Of a stretch of DNA of 64,000 nt, positions 27,661 to 45,027 are shown in pieces (the stretch's first letter is position 1; each line of letters begins with the position of its first letter). This DNA comes from Planctomycetota bacterium (lineage in GTDB: Bacteria; Planctomycetota; PLA2; JAEUHO01). Made by a program: the position numbers and the translations under genes. The stretch is from positions 320,001 to 384,000 of the forward strand of contig CBDCWP010000021.1 in the NCBI GenBank assembly GCA_965223505.1. The letters run 5' to 3'. The notes beneath the pieces were generated by a model that saw nothing but the letters and a program-made list of their open reading frames with translations, was not told the DNA's origin and did not search any database.

Positions 27661-30600
27661 CTACTCGCCCTGCGTCCGGCGCTTGGCGCGGCGCACCACG
27701 ATGTCGAGCCAGCCGCGTTCGTCGAGCGGCTCGAAGTACGGATCGGCCCTCACCTCGGCTTCGAGGTGCGGCGCCCGCACCAGGGCCTCCTCGAGCGCGC
27801 GCGCCGCGGGCGTGAGCCGGTTCAGCGCCGCGTAGGCCTGTGCGAGATGCAGGAAGGGATCCGCGTCGTGCTGGTCCGGCGCGAGGAGCAGCGGCCGTCG
27901 CAGCAGCATCAACGCCTCCTGCGGGCGGTCGCGCTTGAGCAGGACGTAGGCCAACGGATCCAACGTCTCGACGCGCGGCTCGTCGCGAACGCGTTGCTCC
28001 AGGTGCACGGCCCGCCGCGCTGCGTCCTCCGCGAGCGCGAGGTTGAAGTCCACACGCGCGCGTAGAAGAGCGACGGTTCGCAGAACGAATGCGTCCCCCG
28101 GCGCCCTGAGAATGGCGCGGCGGAACGCGGCTTCGGCAAGGGCGTCTTCGCCGTCGGCGGCGTGCACCTGTCCGCGCAAGGCGTCGAGCTTCGCGCGCGC
28201 GTACGTCCGGAGGTCGTACTTGGCCTCTTCGTAGTTGCGACGCGCGATGATGCGGACCACGGTCTCCTGCGCGCGCACGGCGTCGGTGTAGCGCCCCGCT
28301 CGGGCGAACACGTCGGCGCGCCGTGACGCCGATGCGTAGTCGGCGATTCCGTCGACCGGCGCCAGACGGCGAATGTAGCGCTCGACCGTCTCCGCGGCGC
28401 GCGGGCGAGCGCCGTCGCGCTCGTCGCGAAGCACGAGCGCGATCTTGAAGAGATACACGTCAGGAAACAGCGCGAGCGAGCTCGACTTGTGCGCCGATTC
28501 GAGCACCTTGCCCAACACGTCCGAGAGCGTCTCGTCGTCGGCGGTTCGAAGCTGCGCGAGAATGCGGCTCGCCTCCGGCGTCAGTACGTGATAGAGGCCC
28601 TCGGCGGTGTGCTCCAGATAGGGGAGCGGCGCAGGGGCGCGCGCCGCCGAGCCGACGCCGCCGGCGAAGAGCATGGAGCGCTGACGATCCGCCGCTTTCG
28701 TTGCGTACGTCGCCATCTGCGGGAGGAACAACAGCGCACCGAGCGCTTCGATGGACGCTTTCGACTTCGTTCTCATCACGCCGTACGCGAGCGCGCCGGC
28801 TCGATGCACGAACGGCTTCGTCGGCGCGCTGTCCGGATCGAGGTTCGCGGTGACGCCGTAGTACGTCTGCAGCTCGCTTTGCAGCGCGCCCAGCAACGCC
28901 TTCGCGGCGGCGGCGTCCCCCTCGACCCCGACGGCGCCGGCAACGAGCCACTGCAACATGCCGTCCTGGTTCCAGCCTTCCGGCGTCTCGGCCGCCGGAT
29001 TTGCGGGCGCGCCCTGGACCGACGTTCCGTACAACCAGGCGGCGAGCCGGCTACGGGCCTTCGGGCGCACGCGGCCGATCAACATGCGCGCGGCGACGAG
29101 TCGCACGCCGATCTGCACCAACGGGTCGAGTGTGGTTTCGACGACGGCGCTCTCGATCTTGTCCCACGGCTGGAAGCGCAAGGCACGCAACACGTCCTGG
29201 GCGAGGCCGACCTCGTCGTTCTCGGTGCTGTCGGCCAGCGCTTTGCCGTTACGCGCGAGTACCAGGATCGGCAGCAGGAGATCCGCGAGATCGGGAGCGC
29301 CCGGGTGATCGAGGGAGGCCACCGCGGTGAGCCACGACTTGCGTGCGTTCGGTGCGAGCAGGCGGCGCCAGAACGCCGTGATCTCGTCGCCGCGGTGTCG
29401 CCATCGACCTTCCAGGACGTCCGTTACGGGACCGAGGAACCGCGGCTCCTTGTCCAGTGTCGCCGCGATCGACAGCGCGAAGTCGACGGCCGCGTTCACC
29501 GCCGCCTCACCGCGCACGTCTTTGAGCTGCCGCAGCCACGCCTCCTGGCTGCGCGGGTGATCCGCCTGTTCCCAGACCTCGCGCACGTAGCGCACCGCGC
29601 GCTGCGGGTCTGTCACGACCCACGCGATCAACAGCGCCTCGCGTGCCTGGTCGAAGCGCGGCGCGACCGCTTCGAGCAACGCCTGGGTGCGCTCGGTGCG
29701 AACGTCGCGCCGTCGCGGGTCGGCCACGATGGCAAGCGCCGCTCGCTGCAGCGGCCAGCGGGGCTCGGCCAACGCGCGCTCGAGCAGTGTCCATCCGAGG
29801 TCGTCGATCGGTTCCCCGACGACGGGCGCGAGCCGCAGATCGGCGCGCTGGTAGGCGTCGGTTCCTTCGCGAAAGAGATCTTCGATGAGGATCGCGCGCG
29901 CCTCGGGCTCGGGGCGCCGTTCGAGCACGTCGATGGCGCGCAGCCGCAGCTCGACGGCCTCGGCATGAAGCGTCTCCCGTAGGAGCGGCAGCGCCCAGGA
30001 GGCGGGCTCTCCCACGAGCGCGTTCACGATGTCGAGCTTCAAGTAGACGGGCGCGTCGCTCGCCAGGATCTTGCGCGCGAGCCCTTCGTCACCGACGCGC
30101 TTCCAGCGGCTCAGGACCTCGCTTGCTTCCAATCGCAGGAAGCGCTGTCGGAACGGCAGCTTTGCGCGCGCCGCCTCCGTCTCGGCGTCGCCCGGCGCGA
30201 TCAGCTCGTGCAACACCGGCAGCGCCAGCTCCGGACCGAGCTCGCGGATGAGCACGATGCCGTGGCGCGGATAGAAGAACGCGCCGGCCTTGAGCCGCGT
30301 GAGGACGGGTTCGATGATCGGCGCGCCGAAGTCCGGCAGCCGCAGACGCAGCTTGTGCTCGGGAATGGCCGTGTCGAGATACGGGTCCATGTCCACCGGC
30401 CGCGCGATCCAGTCCACCATGCGTTCGAGCGCCCACGTGCGGTCCTCGTCCGTCGCGTCGGCGTGCTCGTACAGCGTGAGCGCCGCGTCGATGGCGATGC
30501 GGCGCAGGTGCACGCTGTCGTAGCCGTACTGCGGCGCACCCAGTGCCCAGCGGCGCAGCCCGGCGATGAAGTCGCCGCTGCCGTTCTCGAGGATCAAGAG

Positions 30601-31347
30601 GCGCAGTGTCTTCGGATCGGCGCCGACGCCCGGCTGTGCGAGCAGGTGCGATGCCTCCGATCGAACGGCGGCGGTGCGTCCGTGCAGATAGCCGTCCCGC
30701 GCCAGCGCGAGAACCGCGGCGCCGCGGTCGCCCGTTCGCAGGTGCGAACGAAGTCGATACGCGTGAAGGGACGACTCGCGGTCGGTCGGAAGCTCGCAGC
30801 GCGCCGTCACGGCTTCTGCCGCCTCCGACGCGAAGAGCGATCGCAGCGCCGCGGCGCGCACGCCTGACACGTCGTCGCGCGCCAGCGTTTCGAGCGCGCC
30901 GACCGCATCGATCGTGCGTCCGCGCCCCAGGCCTTCGGCCGCGATCATGCGCAGCACCGGACGGCGCTCCTTCGCCGCGCGAAGGAGCAGCAGGTCGGCC
31001 TCTTCGTGGTCGCTCACCGAGACGATCTGCAACAGGATCGGAAGCGCGCTACGCGGCACGCCGCCCCTGGCGAGTCGCGTCGCGACGGCCTGCAACCCGA
31101 CGTCGTCGAGCAACACGAGCAGCTTGCGCGACCACTCGAAGCCGTCACGAAACGGCGGCGAGCACAGGACGGTGATGGCGCTGTTGGCGAGCGCGCGCTC
31201 CGTCTCCGTCGGGACGACCGCGGCGATGCCTTCGGGAACGGGTCCGTAGGAGACCGCGTCGTCGTCAGCGCGCGCCGGTTGCGCACCGAGCGTGGGCAGC
31301 AGCGCGAGCAGCACGCCCCACAATCCGAGAGCGCGACGCACGATCAC
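27661..31347 (-). CDS. Large secreted HEAT/TPR repeat protein
   Basis: Signal peptide; HEAT-like LRMIAAEGLG/VRAAALRSL repeats; C-terminal TPRs; GTG start at 31347 overlaps the nnrD stop. Confidence 0.75.
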   Translation of the reverse strand: MIVRRALGLWGVLLALLPTLGAQPARADDDAVSYGPVPEGIAAVVPTETERALANSAITVLCSPPFRDGFEWSRKLLVLLDDVGLQAVATRLARGGVPRSALPILLQIVSVSDHEEADLLLLRAAKERRPVLRMIAAEGLGRGRTIDAVGALETLARDDVSGVRAAALRSLFASEAAEAVTARCELPTDRESSLHAYRLRSHLRTGDRGAAVLALARDGYLHGRTAAVRSEASHLLAQPGVGADPKTLRLLILENGSGDFIAGLRRWALGAPQYGYDSVHLRRIAIDAALTLYEHADATDEDRTWALERMVDWIARPVDMDPYLDTAIPEHKLRLRLPDFGAPIIEPVLTRLKAGAFFYPRHGIVLIRELGPELALPVLHELIAPGDAETEAARAKLPFRQRFLRLEASEVLSRWKRVGDEGLARKILASDAPVYLKLDIVNALVGEPASWALPLLRETLHAEAVELRLRAIDVLERRPEPEARAILIEDLFREGTDAYQRADLRLAPVVGEPIDDLGWTLLERALAEPRWPLQRAALAIVADPRRRDVRTERTQALLEAVAPRFDQAREALLIAWVVTDPQRAVRYVREVWEQADHPRSQEAWLRQLKDVRGEAAVNAAVDFALSIAATLDKEPRFLGPVTDVLEGRWRHRGDEITAFWRRLLAPNARKSWLTAVASLDHPGAPDLADLLLPILVLARNGKALADSTENDEVGLAQDVLRALRFQPWDKIESAVVETTLDPLVQIGVRLVAARMLIGRVRPKARSRLAAWLYGTSVQGAPANPAAETPEGWNQDGMLQWLVAGAVGVEGDAAAAKALLGALQSELQTYYGVTANLDPDSAPTKPFVHRAGALAYGVMRTKSKASIEALGALLFLPQMATYATKAADRQRSMLFAGGVGSAARAPAPLPYLEHTAEGLYHVLTPEASRILAQLRTADDETLSDVLGKVLESAHKSSSLALFPDVYLFKIALVLRDERDGARPRAAETVERYIRRLAPVDGIADYASASRRADVFARAGRYTDAVRAQETVVRIIARRNYEEAKYDLRTYARAKLDALRGQVHAADGEDALAEAAFRRAILRAPGDAFVLRTVALLRARVDFNLALAEDAARRAVHLEQRVRDEPRVETLDPLAYVLLKRDRPQEALMLLRRPLLLAPDQHDADPFLHLAQAYAALNRLTPAARALEEALVRAPHLEAEVRADPYFEPLDERGWLDIVVRRAKRRTQGE

Positions 31348-32237
31348 ACGTCTTTCCGCGCGCCCGGACGCACCCGTTCGGCGAGCGCACGCGGGATCGC
31401 GGCGGCGATCTCGGTTGCCAGGACGCCCCGGTCGGTCGTCTGCGCCAACAGGTCCGCGGCGGCGCCGTGAACGTGCACGGCCAGACAGGCCGACGCGAAC
31501 GCGTCCAGTGCGTTCGCCTCCATCTGCGCGATCAGCGCCCCGATGACACCCGCCAACACGTCGCCCGTTCCGCCGCTCGCGAGCACCGGCCCACCGGTAC
31601 GGTTCCGAAACATGCGTGTGCCGTCGGTGACGATGGTTCCGGGGCCCTTCAGGACCGTGACGGCGCCGGAGGCCTGTGCGATCTGAACCGCCGCCGCTTC
31701 GCGATCGGTCTTCACCGCCGCCGACGTGACGCCGAGCAGCCGCGCGGCTTCGCCTTCGTGCGGCGTGAGCACGGTCGGTCCCGGCCGCTCCTTCAGGGCT
31801 TCGAGGCGCTCGTTCCACGCGAAGAGTCCATCCGCATCCACGATCAGCGGACGTTGCGCGTCGTGCGCGAACTCGCGCACGACGCGCAACGTCGTCGCGT
31901 GACGCCCGGCGCCGGGCCCCAGCACGACCGCGTCCCACTGTGCAACCAGCGTGCGCAGCGACTCGAGCGCGGCTTCGCCCAGGCCGCCCTCGGCGTTTTC
32001 CGGCAGCCCTGTCGTGGTGGCCTCCGCCTGGAACCCGGCCACGACGTCCTGAATCGAGCCCGGCACGGCGATCTTCACGAGGCCCGCGCCGGCGCGCAGC
32101 GCACCCAGCGCGGCCATGGCGGGGGCGCCGGCCAGATTGCGGCTGCCGCCAACGACCAGCACGCGGCCGGTCGTGACCTTGTTCGCGTCGTCGGGGCGCG
32201 GAGGAAGGAACGGAGGCTCGTCGAAGGCTTCGACCAC
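31344..32237 (-). CDS. nnrD: ADP-dependent NAD(P)H-hydrate dehydratase
   Basis: NK...GRVLVVGGS, GAGLV, LGPGAG, VDADGL, LTPHEGEAARL, LKGPGT, LASGGTGDVLAG. Confidence 0.92.
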   Translation of the reverse strand: MVEAFDEPPFLPPRPDDANKVTTGRVLVVGGSRNLAGAPAMAALGALRAGAGLVKIAVPGSIQDVVAGFQAEATTTGLPENAEGGLGEAALESLRTLVAQWDAVVLGPGAGRHATTLRVVREFAHDAQRPLIVDADGLFAWNERLEALKERPGPTVLTPHEGEAARLLGVTSAAVKTDREAAAVQIAQASGAVTVLKGPGTIVTDGTRMFRNRTGGPVLASGGTGDVLAGVIGALIAQMEANALDAFASACLAVHVHGAAADLLAQTTDRGVLATEIAAAIPRALAERVRPGARKDV

Positions 32238-33350: not shown

Positions 33351-33753
33351 GTGATCGAGATGAAGCTGAAAAGCATCAAGATCAACGACACCGGCGACCG
33401 GCAGTACATCGGACTGGTCGAGAAGGACGGCGGCCGCGCGTTGACGATCGTCATCGGCTACCTGGAGGTGCAGGCGATCAGCCGTTCGATCAATCAGGTG
33501 AAGCTCGAGCGGGCCGATGACCCACGACCTCACGAGCGCGATCATCGGCGCGACGGGATGCAGGCTCGAGCGCGTCGAGGTCACGGAGCTCAGGGACGGG
33601 ACCTTCTACGCGATGGTTCGGCTGCGCAAGTCCGACGGCGAGGTCGCGGAGATCGACGCGCGGCCGAGCGACGCGATCGCCCTCGCCAGCGCCCTCGGCG
33701 CGCCCATCTTCGTGGCCGAGGACGTCCTGGCCGAAGCGGCCATCGACGAGTAG
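33351..33753 (+). pseudogene. Bifunctional nuclease (DUF151) with one +1 frameshift; likely a sequencing error
   Basis: LTIVIGYLEVQAI...ER / PMTHDL, GTFYA, IDARPSDAIALA; extra G in GGG at 33511-33513. Confidence 0.85.
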
Positions 33754-33839
33754 GGGCCCAGGGCCCTCGTTCCGTCCTTGAGTCGCAGGCCATTCGCATC
33801 GATCTGCGCTAGCATTTCAGGCGATTCGGAGATTTCGCC

Positions 33840-34739
33840 ATGCGCACGTTGATGACCTCTGTTTGTGTGCTCGCCCTCGCCGCCTTCTTCGCCCCGACGG
33901 TGGACGCCGCGCCGGATGGCTGGCATCCCAACCTGGAGAAGGGCCTCGAAGCGGCCAAGAAGAGCGGCAAGCCGCTCCTGGTGGTCACCGGCTGGGCGCC
34001 GAACATATGAGCGCCCTGCGATAACTGGCGTGCCCAGGTTCAAGAAAGCGACGATCTCAAGAAGCTCCTGCACAAGGTCGAGCCGGTCGAGTGGTGCTAC
34101 GACGGCCTCGGCGGTTCGATCATCAAGTGGACGATGGAGGAGGGCGGCAGCCCGAGCGACCACCCGAGCATCCTCGCCTTTCTCGTGCATCGCGACGGCA
34201 CCTCGTACAGCCGGCTCGACGGCGGCAAGCAGTACGCCGCCGGTTCGTTCACAGGCTGGCTCGAAGACACGCTGAAGGCGTATGAGAAGGACCATCCGAG
34301 CACGCGCATGCCGTTCGTGACCGCCGACGTGAAGGTACGCGGCGACGGAACGGAGCGTGAGGCGAGCTGCGCGGCGCTCGACGAGGCGCTCGAAGCCGGC
34401 AAGCCGGTGTTGCTCTACGTCGGCCGCGAGACCTTCGAGGCGAAGGACAAGGCCGCGAAGAAGGAGAACAAGGCGGCGCGCAAATTCGAGAAGACGACGC
34501 TCAACTCGAAGACGGCCGCGAAGGTCACCGAAGGCTGGGTGCTGTTGCGTGTGGACATGGCGAACGAAGTCCATGCCGTGCTGGCGGCCAAGTACGACGT
34601 GAAGGCGGCGCCGACGCTCTTGATGTTCGTGCCGGGCGCCGAGAAGCCGGAAGACCTCAAGAAGGTCAGCGGCAACGCGCTGGCGTACAAGATGAAGAAG
34701 GTCGTCGAGCAGCTGAAGTCGGGCGGCGACGAGGAGTAG
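33840..34739 (+). CDS. Secreted tandem thioredoxin-fold protein with in-frame UGA in a UxxC motif (putative selenoprotein, 299 aa)
   Basis: ATG 33840, signal peptide, WHPNLEKGLEAAKKSGKPLLVVTGWAPNI-TGA(34008-34010)-APC; reads in frame into ORF 34134-34739. Confidence 0.85.
34023..34040 (+). promoter_or_regulatory. Candidate bacterial SECIS hairpin
   Basis: AAC-TGG-[CGTGC]-CCA-g-GTT stem-loop; the loop begins 18 nt after the UGA and has G at loop position 2. Confidence 0.55.
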
Positions 34740-36570: not shown

Positions 36571-38667
36571 TCAGCGCGCGTCTCGCTCGGCGCGGGCCGC
36601 CTCGATCTCGGAGAGCGCGGCCTTGGCGACCTCGTGCCGGGGGTCGAGCTCGAGCGCCCGCTCGAGTGCCTTCTCCGCATCGACGTACTCGCCGGCTTCC
36701 TTGTACTGGCGCGCCAGGCGGATCCACGGAGCCGCGGTGTCGTGTCGGACGGACACCGCCGCGAACGCATGTCGCGTGGCACGCCGGTCTTCGACCGCCG
36801 CGAGGGCGCGGGCGAGCCGCAGGTTGATCCAGTAGTCGTTCGGATGCCGTTTCTGCCACTCCTGGAGGAAGGACACGGCTTCCTCCTCGCGCCCCATCCG
36901 TTCCAGGCGCAGGCCGACCTCGCTCACGAGGACGAGCGGCAGCGCGTCGCCCTGCGCGCGGGCCACCGCCAGCAGCTCGTCGTCGTCGGCGGTCGTGAGC
37001 GCCGCGCGCGCCTCGGCGCTGGACGCGTCCAGCTCGCAAGCGACCTCGTAGAGCGCTCGCCAACCCAAGCTCTCCAGTTCGTCGGAGTCCTTGCGCAGCA
37101 TGCTCCAGAATCCGATGCTCGCCGCGAAGCTCTTGGAGACGTCGGAGTTCGCCATCCGGTCGCGGCTCTTCGCAACCGAGCCGAAGCGGCGTGCAAAGAC
37201 CTCCGAGAACGCCGCGTCCACCGCCCGGTCTTCTTCCTCCCGCGAGAGGTCTTCGCCGGGCCGACCGCCGCGATAGAGCGAGCGGATCTCCTCGAGCTCC
37301 GCGAGGAACGCCTGGTCGTCTTCTTGCACGCGAAGTGCGTCCATCGCCGCGTCGGCCTCGGCCCGGAGGTCCTTGTAGGCGAACGGGTCGCCGCCGAGGC
37401 CCTGGGCGTGCTTCGCCGCTTCGAGCGCCTCGGTCCACTTGCCGGCCGCGCCGAGCCGGGCCGCCTTGTCGAGCGCGGCCTCGATCGCGGCCCGCCGGTC
37501 GCTCTCGCGTGCGCTCCGATCGGCGTCCATCCAGAGCAGGACGCCGCCGCCGATCAGGAACACCGTGAGCACGACGGTCGCGATCAACGCCGTCTGCCGG
37601 CGCGATCGCCGCTGCTCCTCGGCCCGGCCGCGTGCCATGAGCGCACGCTTTTGGGCGCGGTGCGCGCGTCCGGAGCTCGACGTCAGCGTGGTGGCCACCT
37701 CGTCCGCGAGGATCTGCGCGCTGCGCGGCCGATCCTTGGGAAGCGGTTCGAGGCATGCGAGGCAGAGCTTCACGAGCTGCTCGTTGCCCTTGCAGGCGCG
37801 CAGGCGCTTGTGGGCGCCCTCGAGCTTGGCGTGCTTGGCCGCCTGGCGGCGCTGGTCGGCCGTTCCCGTGTAGGGCGGCGCGCCGGTGAGGATCTCACAG
37901 AGGATGGCGCCGAGGCTGAAGATGTCGCTGCGCTCGTCGAGCGTCTCGATGTGTCCGATGGCCTGTTCGGGCGGCATGTATCCGGGCGTGCCGAGCGCCG
38001 ACCCGGCGACGGAGTCGGATCCGTCCCCCCCCGAGCCCACGGTCGAGATCATGGTGAGGTCGACCGAAGCGCGCATCGCGAGCCGCTCGTCGGCGACACC
38101 GCCCTTCGGCATCACACGGGCGAAGCCCCAGTCGACGACTTTGACGACGCCGTAGTCGCCGAGCATCACGTTGGCGGGCTTCAAGTCGCGGTGGACGACA
38201 CCGCGCACGTGCGCGTACGTCATCGTCCGGCAGACCTCCCGAAACGCCGAGAGCAACGCGCGCTGGTCTTCGTTGACGTTGGAGCGTTGCGCGAGTCGGG
38301 CTGCGAGCGTGTCGCCCTTGACGAGATTCATGGCGAAGAACGGCCGGCCGTCGGCTCGAAGCCCGAGCTCGTACACGGGGACGATGCCCGGATGCTGGAG
38401 CTGTCCCCCGATCTGCGCTTCCTCGATGAAGCGCTGGACCATCTCGGGTGTTTTCGTGTGTTCCTCGAGCAGCACCTTCAACGCCACCTCGCGGCCGAGG
38501 TCGTTGTCGCGGCCCCGGTACACGACGCCGACGGCGCCACGGGCAAGCGGGCCGATGAGCTCGTAGCGCTCCTCGTTGCCACCCGGTCGCCGCGCGCCCT
38601 CGAGGTCGATGCGCGGCGCGTTCTTCCCCATGTCTTCGAGACGGCTGAAGATGCTCTTGTCGCTCAC
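36571..38667 (-). CDS. Membrane Ser/Thr protein kinase with TPR repeats
   Basis: [45 protein letters not shown] helix, TPRs; GTG start overlaps upstream stop. Confidence 0.92.
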
Positions 38668-41600
38668 CGCTTGCCCTTCTGCACGAGGCGAATGAGCTCG
38701 TCGACGTCCGACCAGTACTGCTTCCACTCGTCGGGCCGATCGAGCGCGTCGCGGACGACCTTGAGATCCGGGTCACGCTGGGAGTGGGGGAGCCGCATCC
38801 GCAGGAAGTCCGGATCGCTCTCGACGAGCTTGCGACAGAGCTCGAGGTCGGCGCGCAGCCACGCCAGCGCTTGCGCGTGATGCTCCTTCCCTGCCAGCAC
38901 CGCCGAGCAGGCTGCGTTGTACAAGCGGTTCGTCTTCACGTCGGCGGCGACGTCGGCATCGGACGCGAACGCTTCCGCATACAGACGCGTCGAACCCGCG
39001 TAGTCTTTCTTGTGCCGTGCGACCTCGGCGAACGCGACCTTCTCCTCCGCGTCGGCCGGCTTCTTCTTGCCGGCAAGCACGTCGGGCAGCGCTTTGGCGA
39101 GCTCGATCGACTTCTTGACATTCTCGAGCGCGGCGGCGTAGTTCGGAAGCTCGTCGACGATCTTCGACAGCTCCTCAGCCGACTCATCGAACAGCCCCTC
39201 GTGCCACAGTTGGATGCCGAGCCGGCCTCGCGCGATGGGATCATCGGGCGAGAGCTCCACCGCCTTGCGGTGCATCGCGAGCGACTCCTTCGAGGCGCCC
39301 ATCTCGGCCAGCAGGAGACCGAGCCGGGACCATGCCGGCACGAAGTTGACGTTGATGTTCAGGCAGTCGCGGAACGCCTTCTCGGCTTCCTCCCGATCCC
39401 CCGCGCCGGCATGGGCGATACCGAGCAGGTGGTACGATCGAAACGATCGTGAGTTGCCCTTGAGGCTCTCCTCGAGCACCTCCACCGCCTGGTCGAAGTT
39501 CGACTGCCGGTTCAGCACGTCCCCGAGCACCATCGCTACGTACCAGTGCTGCTCGCCCAGCGAGCGCGACCGCTCGATCTCTCTCCGGGCCTTGTCGAGC
39601 TCGTTCTTCTCCAGATGCGCGATGCCCAAGAGCGCGTGGGCCCGCGCGTGCGTGTCATCGAGCGCGACGACCTTCGTGAACCACTCGATCGCGCCGTCGG
39701 GGTCCGCCGTCTGCAACGCCATCCGGCCGACGCCGAGCGTTGCTTCCAAGTGCTCGGGATCCGCCTTTGCGGCAGCCTCGAATTCCCTTCGCGCGGCCTT
39801 GCGGTCCCCGAGCGTCTCGTAGAGCTGAGCGAGGGCCAGGGGGTGCCGCACCTTCGCGTCCGGCTCGCGGTCGACGTTGACGAATCGGCGGTGGGCGGCG
39901 ATCGCGTCGGTGCGATCGCCACGCAACGCGTGGATCCGCGCCAGCTCGCGGAACGTCGCGGCGAGCGTCGGTGCGCGTCGGGTGCCTTCCCGCGCGGCCT
40001 CCAGCGCGCCCTCGAGGTTGTTCTGTCGGGAACGCGCCCTGGCCAGGTAGACGTAGTTCCACCCGTTCGTCGGATCGAGCTCCACGCCCTCCTCCGCTTC
40101 GGTCTCGGCGCGGGACGGGTCGCCGGACGCGAGCAGCGTGTCGGCCAGCCGGGCGCGGGCCTCGGCGTTGCGCGGCGCGAACTCCACGGCGCTGCGCGCG
40201 GCGTCGAGCGCAGCGGTGACGTTGCCCCGGTCGAGGTGGATCCGGCTCAGATGCACGTAGGGCGCGGCGATCGTCGGAGCGAGCTCGATGGCGTTGTCGT
40301 ACGCGTCGATCGCCTCGTCGAGCCGCTCCTTCATCTGGAACGCGTAGCCGAGGGTGACGTAGGCGCCGTGCTGGTGCTTGTCCATCCGGATCGCTTGTCG
40401 GGTGACCTCGATGGCCTTGTCGTAGTCCTCGAGCTCGATGTAGCAGCGCCCGATCTCGGCGTGCGCGAGCGCGGAGTCCTTGCCCCGCTCTCGGGCCTCT
40501 CGGATCGCCGCACGGGCCTCGTCGGGATCGTTGTTGCGTGCGTACGACAGCGCGAGGCCGACGTTCGCCGACCACGAGTCCGTGGAATGTGTGAGCGCCT
40601 GCTTGAACGCGTCGATCGCGCGATCGTCGTCACCGAGGTGTTCCGAGAGGATCACACCGCGGCGCACCAGGAAACCCTCGTCGTCGGGTTGGACCTTCAG
40701 GGCCGCCTCGATGGTGGCGAGCGCGGCCTTCGGGTTGTGCGCGTGAAGCTGCGCGTCCGCGAGTCGGTTGTAGGCGTCGATGTAACCCGGCGTGAGCTTT
40801 ACGACGCGGCCGAACGCGTGCGCGGCGTCTTCGAACTCGCCGGCGCTGGCGAGGCACAGGCCGAGGTTGTACCAACCGACGTCCACCTCGGGCCGCAGAG
40901 CGACCGCGGCGTTCGCGTGCCGGATCGCCAGCTCCAGCTGCGCCAGTGCTGCGTCGACCTCGTCTGGGTCGTCCTCGGCGATGGCCAGCTCGCGCGCGGC
41001 CAACGCAATCCGGATGTGGATCATGATCTCGTCCGGATGCCTGCGATTCCACGGCAGCAGGAAGTCGATCGCATCCTGTGGGCGGCCGAGGTCGATGAGG
41101 TTCATGGCGACCTGCGAAACCAGCGCGAGCGGGAGCATGTCGCCGCGCGCCTCCACGGCTTCGAGCAGCGCGTCGCCGTCCTCGGTGACGAGGGCGTCCC
41201 GGATCTCGATGCTCGCCGGATCGATTTCCCGGGCCAGCGTGTCGAGCGAGCGCCAGTCGGATCCTTCGAGGGCCGGCATCGTCTTCCGCAGCCAGCACCA
41301 GTAGCCGATGTTGGCGGCGAACTCGGGCGCGTGCCGCGATGCGCGCAGTCGCTCCTGGCCGCCCCCGATCGAGCCGAAGCGACTCTCGAACGCGGTGGCG
41401 TAGGCGGCATCCATCGCCTTGTGGCGGTCGCCGGGCCGATCCCATGTCTCGGGCGCCATGGCGACCAGCCCCGTCCCGCCGCCGGCGCCGGTGACGGTCT
41501 TCGTGCTGCCCGGCGCGAGGTTGCGGATGGCGACCAGCTCCGCCAGGAGCGCGTCGTCCTGCTCGCGAATGGCGAGCTGCTTCGCGTGCTCGGCCTGCTC

Positions 41601-43052
41601 GGATTCGAGGCGCTCGAGCGCCGCCCGCGCTTCGGTGTCGTCGACGCCTTCCGATCGGGCGACATCCACGGCCCGCTGCGCCGACGCGACGGCGCCGGCC
41701 CAGTCGCCGATCACCTCGTGCTTGCCGGCTTCGCGCAGCGCTTCGGCGACCAACGGCGCCGCCCGCGCTTCGCGCGCATCGCGTGCGCCCTTCCACCACA
41801 GGTACCCGCCGCCCATCGCGATGATCGAGATCGCGGCAACGGCGCTGAGCGTGAGCACGTTCTTGCGTTTCCTGCGCTCCTTCGCGATGCGATTCTCGGC
41901 CTCGAGCGCGTCGAGCTCCGACTTCAGCGCCTCGCTCTCGACCGCGGCGAAGTGTGCCGCCATGCGTTCTTCGACGATGCCGGCGTGGCGCGGACGATCG
42001 GGAGGCAGCGGCTGGAGGCAGTCCCGACACAGCTTCTTCAGCGGCTCCGGGGCGTCGGCGGCGTCGAGCCGTGCGTACGCGTCGTCGAGGCGGCACTGGG
42101 TCGCCGCGACGAGCTGGTCGCGGACCTCGCCGGTGTAGGGCGCTTCGCCGGTCAGGATCTCGCACAGGATCGCTCCGAGCGAGAACACGTCGGCGCGTTC
42201 GTCGAGGTCGTCCACGCGACCGAGCGCCTGCTCGGGCGGCATGTACGCGGGCGTCCCCATGACGCTTCCCGCCATCGAGTCCGATCTACCCGAGCTACGA
42301 AGTGTGGCGATGATCGTGCCGTCGGCCTGGCGCGCGACCTCGTCGCGTCCGATCACCTTGCCGAAGCCCCAGTCGACGACGAGCACCTCGCCGAACGAGC
42401 CGATCATGATGTTCGCCGGCTTCAGGTCTCGGTGGATGACGCGGCGCGAGTGCGTGTAGGCGATGGTGAGGGCGACGGCCTCGAAGACGCTCAGGAGGTC
42501 GATGCCCTTCGGGTTGCTCTGCAGCAGGTCGGCGAGGGTGCGCCCCTTGATCAGCTTCATCGAGAAGCTCGGCCGTCCGTCGGACTGGAGCCCGAGTCCG
42601 TACACCGGGACGATGCCGGGGTGTTGCAGCTGCCCGCCGACCTGCGCCTCTTCGATGAAGCGCGCGACCACGTCCTCGCGCTCGGCGAACTCGGGGCGGA
42701 GCACCTTCAGCGCGATGTCGCGGTTCAGGTCCCGGTCGCGCCCGCGGTAGACGATCCCGATCCCTCCGCGCGCGATCTCGCCGACGATGTGGAACCGGCT
42801 GTCGCTGGCCGCCTCCTCCTCCTTGCGCTGGAAGACGAGCCGCTCTTCGCCGTCCTGCGGCTCCCGGAGCAGGATGCTGCCGTCGAGATTGTGGAGCCTC
42901 GAAATCGCGACGAGGATGCTCTCCCCGGTCTCCCTGGGGAACGGCTCGAAGGCCTCTCCCTCGCGCGGCTCGCCCGAAGCGTCTTCGCGGGGCTGGTTCG
43001 TCGGCTCATTCGAGCTCACTTCGGCGGGATCGTCGGGCCGGTCGTCTTTCAT
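38664..43052 (-). CDS. Large membrane Ser/Thr protein kinase with many TPR repeats
   Basis: [37 protein letters not shown] helix, long TPR array, C-terminal YNAAC motif. Confidence 0.93.
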
Positions 43053-44937: not shown

Positions 44938-45027
44938 GGAGGGATGGCCGAGTGGTCGAAGGCACCGGTTTTGAAAACCGGCGTACCCTCACAGGTACCG
45001 CGAGTTCGAATCTCGCTCCCTCCGCCA
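44938..45027 (+). tRNA. tRNA-Ser(TGA), 90 nt, CCA encoded; island integration site
   Basis: GGAGGGA/TCCCTCC acceptor stem, CCGGT-TTTGAAA-ACCGG anticodon arm, long variable arm, GTTCGAAT T loop, GCCA end. Confidence 0.95.

Follow-up and report, generated by a model that had tools for sequence, protein, structure and literature searches.

An in-frame UGA in a predicted exported protein with two thioredoxin folds from a Planctomycetota genome: a probable selenoprotein of an apparently uncatalogued family

The window analysed here is a stretch of 64,000 nucleotides (nt) from a Planctomycetota bacterium (GenBank assembly GCA_965223505.1, contig CBDCWP010000021.1, positions 320,001 to 384,000 of the forward strand), and positions are counted from its first letter. 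The subject is a frame of 299 codons on the plus strand that runs from the ATG at 33840 to the TAG at 34737-34739 and is interrupted only once, by the TGA at 34008-34010. A mechanical list of open reading frames (ORFs) presents it as two separate ORFs, 33840-34010 (56 amino acids) and 34134-34739 (201 amino acids). When the TGA is read through, the product begins with the signal-peptide-like MRTLMTSVCVLALAAFFAPTVDA/AP and continues GLEAAKKSGKPLLVV, and around the stop codon it reads GLEAAKKSGKPLLVVTGWAPNI-U-APC-DNWR, i.e. NI-U-A-P-C at the TGA, within the motif PNIUAPC. The original prediction, made from the letters alone, held that the ORF track misses the upstream part of a frame that goes back to the ATG with a single TGA, and that this TGA stands where the first Cys of a CxxC motif belongs. 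The first claim was confirmed by direct reading, and the second by a match to the PF13899 domain and by homologs with Cys at this place. We conclude that 33840-34739 is very probably one gene for a 299-residue, predicted exported selenoprotein, in which the UGA is read as selenocysteine (Sec).

The conservation of the TGA was investigated by a six-frame search of 41 genomes, namely the genome that contains the window (G000) and 40 relatives. Full-length matches with 43-62% identity are present in 14 of them, G000 included, and each match has exactly one TGA inside; four additional weak partial matches were judged not to be members. The TGA falls into a single alignment column in all 14 orthologs, inside W-x4-U-x-[PS]-C-[DE]-x-W-R, and the N-terminus is hydrophobic in all 14 as well. 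Residues on both sides of the codon are invariant in the ortholog alignments: G35, A38, P45, T50 and W52 on the 5' side, and C60, D61, W63, Y87, L90, G92, I95, W97, T98, P109 and others on the 3' side.

The search was also carried out on a wider sample of 401 genomes of the phylum, again with G000, at a threshold of E <= 1e-10. Matches were found in 27 genomes, and the rows that cover nearly the whole profile comprise 17 with one TGA and 4 without. This sample added six full-length Sec forms whose sites were checked in the new loci (G121, G097, G144, G181, G289 and G260), and four Cys forms with CGSC, CASC or CNSC at the site (G245, a second copy in G121, G214 and G230), so that the full-length copies in the genomes searched are 20 Sec versus 4 Cys forms. 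In other words, the homologs conserve the protein on both sides of the TGA and carry either TGA or Cys at the aligned codon. All 12 family loci with a taxon title come from Planctomycetota or Planctomycetia metagenome-assembled genomes.

Some copies deviate from this pattern. Three Sec forms (G100, G136 and G353) have the N-terminal domain only, followed by a different, helical C-terminal region. We note that a sister subfamily (L073 in G100, L075 in G136, the partial L074 and the protein P0089) shares the N-terminal domain, and that a helical tail of about 200 residues with a conserved C-x-x-C-R motif replaces the second thioredoxin fold; P0089 apparently has Ser at the Sec position. The copy in G381 is split over contig ends. 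The copy in G313 (contig C9; L072 / L080) is disrupted, with about 100 codons of unrelated reading between the conserved N- and C-terminal parts and a second TGA, and may be a decaying gene or an assembly fault. In genome G121 a Sec form and a Cys form occur together (L057 and L078).

A TGA in a draft assembly of 44 contigs could also stem from faulty sequencing or assembly, or from a nonsense mutation that recently turned the gene into a pseudogene, and the upstream bifunctional-nuclease gene is indeed split between frames near 33513. Nevertheless, the same TGA recurs in 20 other genomes, with protein identities of 43-62%, and the frame 33840-34739 has no other defect. Moreover, two runs of one sample gave Logan contigs without a differing letter at 34008-34010, i.e. 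TGA and not TGC or TGT, although this sample is possibly the assembly's own source and hence not independent support for the TGA. We regard an error or a pseudogene as extremely improbable.

The relationship of the Sec and Cys forms was inspected on a quick maximum-likelihood tree of 38 rows (22 Sec and 16 Cys), rooted on the forms with the N-terminal domain only; L072 (disrupted), L074 (partial) and L077 (a distant Thioredoxin_7 protein) were left out. The Sec and Cys forms are interleaved on the tree, with a minimum of 6 changes between the two states, at least 4 of which are forced by well-supported branches.

The way in which the family appears in protein databases is conspicuous. A collection of 5.8 billion proteins gave 26 matches, 24 of which, P0002 included, are 198-239 amino acids long and span only the C-terminal 62-78% of the query; the product of the window itself is present only as P0002, of 201 amino acids. 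The proteins P0020 and P0024 are full length, both with PF13899, and read ...CNSCDTWR and ...CNTCDTWQ at the site. A profile search of 1.84 billion representatives returned 211 proteins at E <= 0.001, 43 of them at E <= 1e-30. Among the 150 matches listed, about 33 proteins of 45-90 amino acids stop at profile position 55-57 and about 38 begin at position 68-76; these short proteins are the two halves that are left when the UGA is taken as a stop. Truncation by standard annotation, as it had been suspected, is thus directly visible in the public gene calls. Nineteen representatives were fetched: 13 full-length or nearly full-length ones carry Cys at the codon-57 site, two are partial Cys forms, three are N-terminal fragments that end one residue before the site, and one is P0089.

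The same gene calls, together with the ORF finders, agree with a reading in which the UGA is a true stop and the locus holds two genes, one for a secreted peptide of 56 residues and one for a protein of 201 residues from 34134. In this case, however, the stop would fall inside a single thioredoxin fold, between strand 1 and helix 1, and the downstream piece would be a protein with half a domain and no signal peptide. The 41 codons from the TGA to the ATG at 34134 are moreover conserved at the protein level (E81, V83, E84, Y87, D88, G89, L90, G92, I95, W97, T98), and 17 Cys forms are continuous across the site. Two separate genes are therefore very improbable.

The domain composition of the read-through product was analysed by profile and structure comparisons (see the table of features below). 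The Thioredoxin_7 domain (PF13899) is recognised in residues 28-78 with 33.5 bits against a gathering cut-off of 27, and the TGA lies at the position of its first Cys of CxxC, whereas the thioredoxin matches of the C-terminal half stay below threshold (PF00085, residues 224-284). An AlphaFold2 model based on an 11-row alignment has a mean pLDDT (predicted local distance difference test) of 86.6 and a predicted template modelling score (pTM) of 0.77, with pLDDT below 50 only in residues 1-22. In this model U57 is placed between a strand (46-51) and a helix (58-68), the canonical position of a thioredoxin active site. A long conserved insert, Y-D-G-L-x-G-x-I-I-x-W-T, is found between strand 2 and strand 3. 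The sequence search of PDB gave one match, 3fk8_A, at E 0.0017.

VIA-align compared residues 25-152 best with 3f9u_B, the C-terminal domain of an exported cytochrome c biogenesis-related protein (Z 12.8), and then with DsbH, AGR3 and thioredoxins, while residues 156-289 matched DsbD gamma (1vrs_D, Z 12.6, 22% identity) and also many thioredoxins. The best Foldseek matches over 256-297 columns are proteins with two thioredoxin domains, i.e. ERp72 a0a, protein disulfide isomerase (PDI), ERp57 and QSOX1, at template modelling (TM) scores of 0.24-0.34; to judge from the model, these low scores mean that the parts are alike and the mutual orientation of the domains differs. The suggested two-domain thioredoxin architecture was thus borne out by the AlphaFold model, VIA and Foldseek. 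The description of the second half as a Cys-less thioredoxin fold holds in part: the fold is there and residues 156-299 contain no CxxC, the corresponding region holding G195-R196...D203, but Cys177 of this domain is kept in 10 of the 14 aligned orthologs. Ala-Pro (257-258) is invariant at its cis-proline position. The two halves share the motif A..GKP.L (alpha0-beta1; E 0.044 in one pairwise comparison), which is suggestive of an internal duplication of the thioredoxin fold.

Features of the locus, with window positions (1 to 64,000) and the basis of each assignment
Feature	Position	Strand	Basis and remarks
Shine-Dalgarno-like GGAG	33828..33831	+	8 nt 5' of the ATG; read from the sequence
Complete coding sequence, very probably of a selenoprotein	33840..34739	+	299 codons and TAG, UGA taken as Sec at codon 57; 20 orthologs built alike
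Predicted Sec-type signal peptide	33840..33908	+	MR, hydrophobic run, then VDA/A; suggested by the sequence
N-terminal catalytic thioredoxin fold, Thioredoxin_7-like	33912..34295 (residues 25-152)	+	Active site W-x4-U-A-P-C-D-x-W-R; Pfam and VIA
In-frame TGA, probable Sec codon (U57)	34008..34010	+	TGA in 14/14 aligned and 6 further full-length orthologs; Cys in other homologs
TGC, resolving Cys60 of UxxC	34017..34019	+	Column invariant in both alignments
Candidate core of a bacterial selenocysteine insertion sequence	34025..34037	+	CUGG stem, CGUGC loop, CCAG stem; loop starts 18 nt past the UGA
201-residue ORF of the gene callers	34134..34739	+	Artefact of halting at the UGA; identical with P0002
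C-terminal thioredoxin fold without CxxC, DsbD-gamma-like	34305..34706 (residues 156-289)	+	VIA, sub-threshold PF00085, invariant columns

The original prediction also pointed to a hairpin resembling a selenocysteine insertion sequence (SECIS) downstream of the UGA. Its location (arm 34023-34028, loop CGTGC 34029-34033, arm 34034-34040) and the distance of 18 nt between UGA and loop were verified, but the bulged form with 6 base pairs scores only -1.3 kcal/mol and the 4-bp core CUGG/CCAG, at -4.1 kcal/mol, is the only favourable part. According to the legend of Fig. 2 in PMC13188914, a bacterial SECIS (bSECIS) has a loop of 3-9 nt, a stem of at least 4 bp, a G in the first two loop positions, a spacing of 16-37 nt and a minimum free energy of -7.5 kcal/mol or lower. 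In the window copy the loop has 5 nt (CGUGC), the stem 4 bp and the spacing 18 nt, with a minimum free energy of -9.7 to -10.5, and 68% of mock codons pass the same constraints. The hairpin of the window copy alone is not beyond chance and is not evidence by itself.

The orthologs give a clearer picture. In most Sec forms the stem comprises 5-8 bp and the loop lies 18-19 nt past the UGA. The median hairpin energy of the Sec forms is -8.8 kcal/mol compared with -3.0 for 6165 mock codons of the same genes, and hairpins of -7 kcal/mol or lower are seen in 65% of the former versus 19% of the latter. In-register pairing amounts to 81.4% of 140 cells versus 25-47% when the partner is slid, and the mean stem is 6.0 bp where 3.06 bp are expected under synonymous recoding. 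The bias is also evident in single codons: 16 of 20 Sec forms use the rare CGT for Arg64, whose codon contributes the loop U, versus 36 of 371 (about 10%) elsewhere in the same genes, and no other column of the 131 analysed deviates strongly. The stem Thr is ACC in 11 of 11 cases (background 33%) and the stem Ala is GCC in 10 of 10 (background 40%). L026 and L057 keep a 6-bp stem even though its register is shifted and the amino acids differ, and in the subfamily with the N-terminal domain only the stem is displaced 6 nt downstream, again with a CGUG loop. Since the rare CGU loop codon is strongly preferred and the orthologs have stems of 5-8 bp, we consider it likely, though unproven, that the hairpin is the SECIS, provided that the gene does encode a selenoprotein. 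The SECIS-like element of the original prediction is thus supported in part, by the ortholog hairpins and the synonymous-site bias, and is weak in the window copy.

A number of observations weigh against this assignment. In the window copy, the 53 nt past the UGA fold no better than shuffled sequences (z +0.85; 159 of 200 shuffles do equally well), the region folds worse than synonymous recodings (z +2.46), and the hairpin energy in the mock-codon comparison is -2.5 kcal/mol, poorer than the background median. Across the family, covariation is not significant, as 79 of 500 column shuffles match the observed pairing and double changes occur in 2 pairs only; RNAalifold run on 20 Sec forms did not recover the helix, and the total folding energy of 22 Sec forms is not below that of synonymous recodings (mean z -0.34). 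Every one of the 23 Sec forms passes the bSECIS constraints as given in that legend, but with the mock-codon pass rate quoted above the model is permissive. Moreover, 3 of the 4 genomic Cys forms keep the same hairpin. We note that these are L061, L062 and L068, and that two of them differ from the Sec forms by a G-C swap at two third-codon positions; the hairpin of the Cys forms may be a fossil SECIS, a by-product in part of the T-W-R-D-Q-V peptide, or a structure with another role. An Rfam scan of 33800-34300 at E <= 10 gave two chance matches, snoRNA- and lncRNA-like, and no bacterial SECIS family.

These points would fit an alternative in which the selenoprotein reading stands and the functional SECIS is something other than the hairpin at 34025-34037, with SelB recognising another or larger structure and the peptide T/N-W-R-D/A-Q-V being the main cause of the hairpin's conservation. 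The missing covariation and RNAalifold helix, the ordinary folding energies, the stem of only 4 bp in the window copy, the hairpins of the Cys forms and the permissive model all speak for it. A conserved peptide, however, would hardly account for the CGT preference in the loop, for the ACC and GCC bias in the stem, for the register-shifted stems over other amino acids in L026 and L057, or for the relocated CGUG hairpin of the N-domain-only subfamily. We therefore judge a non-SECIS hairpin to be unlikely, yet of a weight that has to be kept in mind.

The genome of the window has the means to decode UGA as Sec. G000 (5.15 Mb, 44 contigs, 92% complete) contains selA (436.7 bits), selB (335.7 bits) and selD (338.1 bits), all above curated cut-offs, and a tRNA-Sec with 69.2 bits (gathering score 47), which ARAGORN reports as tRNA-SeC with anticodon TCA; i.e. 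selA, selB, selC and selD are all present. We note that selD adjoins the 3' side of selA (G000:C8:37088-39232; L001, L018) and itself has an in-frame TGA in GAGGU with a long hairpin downstream. TGA terminates 30 of the 61 long open frames of the window, a frame list that includes spurious antisense frames, and 3 of the 14 orthologs end with it as their true stop, so that the recoding is specific to the site. At least 5 more Thioredoxin_7-type frames of G000 have a TGA at the redox motif.

Several of these frames are of interest in their own right. L081 (G000:C11:7320-7583) is a DsbD-like membrane protein with an in-frame TGA and a C-terminal thioredoxin domain reading DWUATC; it appears to be a Sec form of DsbD and could conceivably serve as electron donor to periplasmic thioredoxin-like proteins. 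L085, L088, L089 and L090 (C21:458938-459168, C7:128944-129189, C34:130121-130381 and C21:278203-278469) are Thioredoxin_7-type frames with the motifs FRUEPUKDC (two TGA), FRCVPUVGC, VPGUSTC and KKHUPHC, the UEPU and CVPU ones being Trx7/PDZ-like. G000 looks rich in exported Trx7 selenoproteins.

It could still be argued that translation passes the UGA with a standard amino acid in place of Sec, namely Trp, Cys or Gly inserted through near-cognate or suppressor decoding. The weak local SECIS would agree with this; no RNA run is listed among the sequencing runs that cover the locus. Against it stand the complete selABCD set with a selenoprotein-type selD, the other Trx7-type genes of G000 with TGA at redox motifs, the use of TGA as an ordinary stop elsewhere, and the homologs, in which the sole alternative residue is Cys at the CxxC redox site. 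Decoding as a standard amino acid has in our view a very low probability, and Sec remains the preferred reading. No neighbour is conserved family-wide in the 25 loci compared, so that the neighbourhood gave no functional clue and no functional inference was drawn from it.

Selenoproteins with UxxC in a thioredoxin fold are the commonest selenoprotein class. The family described here is of this well-known kind and is probably new and uncatalogued. Among the NCBIfam models no selenoprotein model reaches its cut-off, the best being NF041199 (Trx7/PDZ domain-containing (seleno)protein) with 24.2 bits against 300. NF041199 is likewise an exported Trx7 selenoprotein of planctomycete type, with copies in G000, but it has CxxU and a PDZ tail whereas the window protein has UxxC, a second thioredoxin fold and no PDZ match. 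The VPGUxxT thioredoxin-like (seleno)protein (NF041382) scores 18.4 bits against a cut-off of 350, with a VPGU motif versus PNIUAPC here, and in DsbD (NF001419, 18.8 bits against 330) and TsoB (NF045694, 21.9 against 805) only the C-terminal thioredoxin domain aligns. Beyond such weak hits as NF041199, the HUIPC-motif and other thioredoxin-like selenoprotein models of NCBIfam gave no match even at E <= 1.

The nearest likenesses in the literature are the Sec-containing thioredoxin, thiol:disulfide interchange, DsbG-like, SaoT and HUIPC-motif thioredoxin-like proteins of Table 1 in a 2026 review of the prokaryotic selenoproteome (PMC13188914), which, as far as that table describes them, have the UxxC thioredoxin fold with Sec as the attacking residue and interconverting Sec and Cys forms, as here. 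They differ from the window protein in that the latter is based on PF13899 and not on PF00085 or PF13098, and its two-domain architecture and flanking motifs are specific to the family. Over most of the table, the extent of this comparison, no PF13899-based UxxC family and no family with two thioredoxin domains is listed. Literature searches found no description of a planctomycete UxxC selenoprotein with two thioredoxin domains; the BSepDB family table lay outside the comparison and may bear on the word uncatalogued. So far as tested, i.e. with no NCBIfam cut-off reached and no entry in the part of the table of PMC13188914 that was compared, the claim of an uncatalogued family is supported; metagenomic surveys may nevertheless have included the family already under a general name such as 'thioredoxin-like'.

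In structural terms both halves of the protein have the same fold as Thioredoxin_7 (PF13899) and DsbD gamma (PDB 1vrs, 2fwh, 3f9u; Z 12.6-12.8), with which they share the alpha0-beta1 motif A..GKP.L.., a redox motif that starts helix 1, and export, predicted in our case. Compared to DsbD, the window protein lacks the membrane domain, has Sec for the first Cys and a long insert, and carries its domains in tandem, the second without CxxC. The order of an active thioredoxin domain and a redox-inactive one recalls the a-b modules of the PDI family (ERp72 a0a 3idv, ERp27, Trx1-Trx2 of QSOX1, ERdj5). These are, however, eukaryotic proteins of the endoplasmic reticulum without Sec, at 10-16% identity and TM 0.24-0.34 and with a different domain orientation; as judged from the models, the likeness is architectural and not evidence of common descent.

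On the basis of these comparisons the following mechanism can be proposed. The UGA would be decoded as Sec by the SelA, SelB, SelD and tRNA-Sec of G000 itself, and this decoding is most likely guided by the small hairpin, whose CGUG-type loop starts 18 nt downstream. After export and cleavage of the signal peptide, both of them predicted, the mature protein would consist of two thioredoxin folds. In the first, U57-A-P-C60 would lie at the N-terminus of helix 1, with Sec as the attacking residue and Cys60 resolving the selenenylsulfide. The second fold would be redox-inactive and may bind a substrate or partner, like the b domains of protein disulfide isomerases. Recharging by a DsbD/CcdA-type system is possible, and the DsbD-like gamma domain of G000 reads WUATC. 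Sec as the attacker and Pro before the resolving Cys are typical of reducing or isomerising sites of the thioredoxin type (CGPC, CVPC, CEPC). Because a catalytic domain with U-A-P-C is combined with an inactive domain resembling PDI b, the protein is read as a periplasmic thiol-disulfide reductase or isomerase, and its most likely activity would be reduction or isomerisation through the Sec57-Cys60 selenenylsulfide.

The bifunctional-nuclease gene upstream is syntenic in 9 of the 25 loci, all of them of the window's own family. In the window this BFN_dom gene (33351-33753, plus strand) is split over two frames near 33513, homolog residues 65-118 matching one frame and 119-193 the next; either the gene is a pseudogene with a frameshift or the draft assembly contains an indel error here. 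Six loci, most of which belong to family f55, have a small gene for a SoxA/TsdA-type cytochrome c in the same orientation about 0.8 kb upstream (L044:2826-3236, with matching ORFs in L047, L049, L063, L064 and L068). A STAS gene, a DUF6265 gene and Ser/Thr kinases are found downstream on the opposite strand. The flanks of the locus also hold two large Ser/Thr-kinase-TPR proteins and a TPR protein of 1425 amino acids (36571-38727, 38664-43052 and 27661-31938, all on the minus strand), and a tRNA-Ser with anticodon TGA is located at 44938-45027 on the plus strand.

As a tentative and rather doubtful extension, the window protein could be regarded as the founding member of an uncatalogued, mostly Sec-containing family restricted to Planctomycetota, a bacterial, periplasmic counterpart of the PDI a-b modules in which Sec would be the attacking residue, a degenerate second thioredoxin domain would select the substrate and a SECIS of 4-7 bp with a CGUG loop would direct decoding. 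If this were true, such a minimal SECIS would push down the size limit of the hairpins that SelB accepts. The finding is no new kind of biology. Nevertheless, it corrects a systematic annotation error, as the family is public almost solely in the form of 'hypothetical protein' fragments of 45-90 and about 200-240 amino acids. The very small conserved hairpin is a handy test case for SECIS requirements outside Proteobacteria, and the repeated switches between Sec and Cys provide natural pairs for asking what the benefit of Sec is in an extracytoplasmic oxidoreductase. The bacterial selenoproteome gains one more family, in a phylum that is seemingly rich in Trx7-type selenoproteins.

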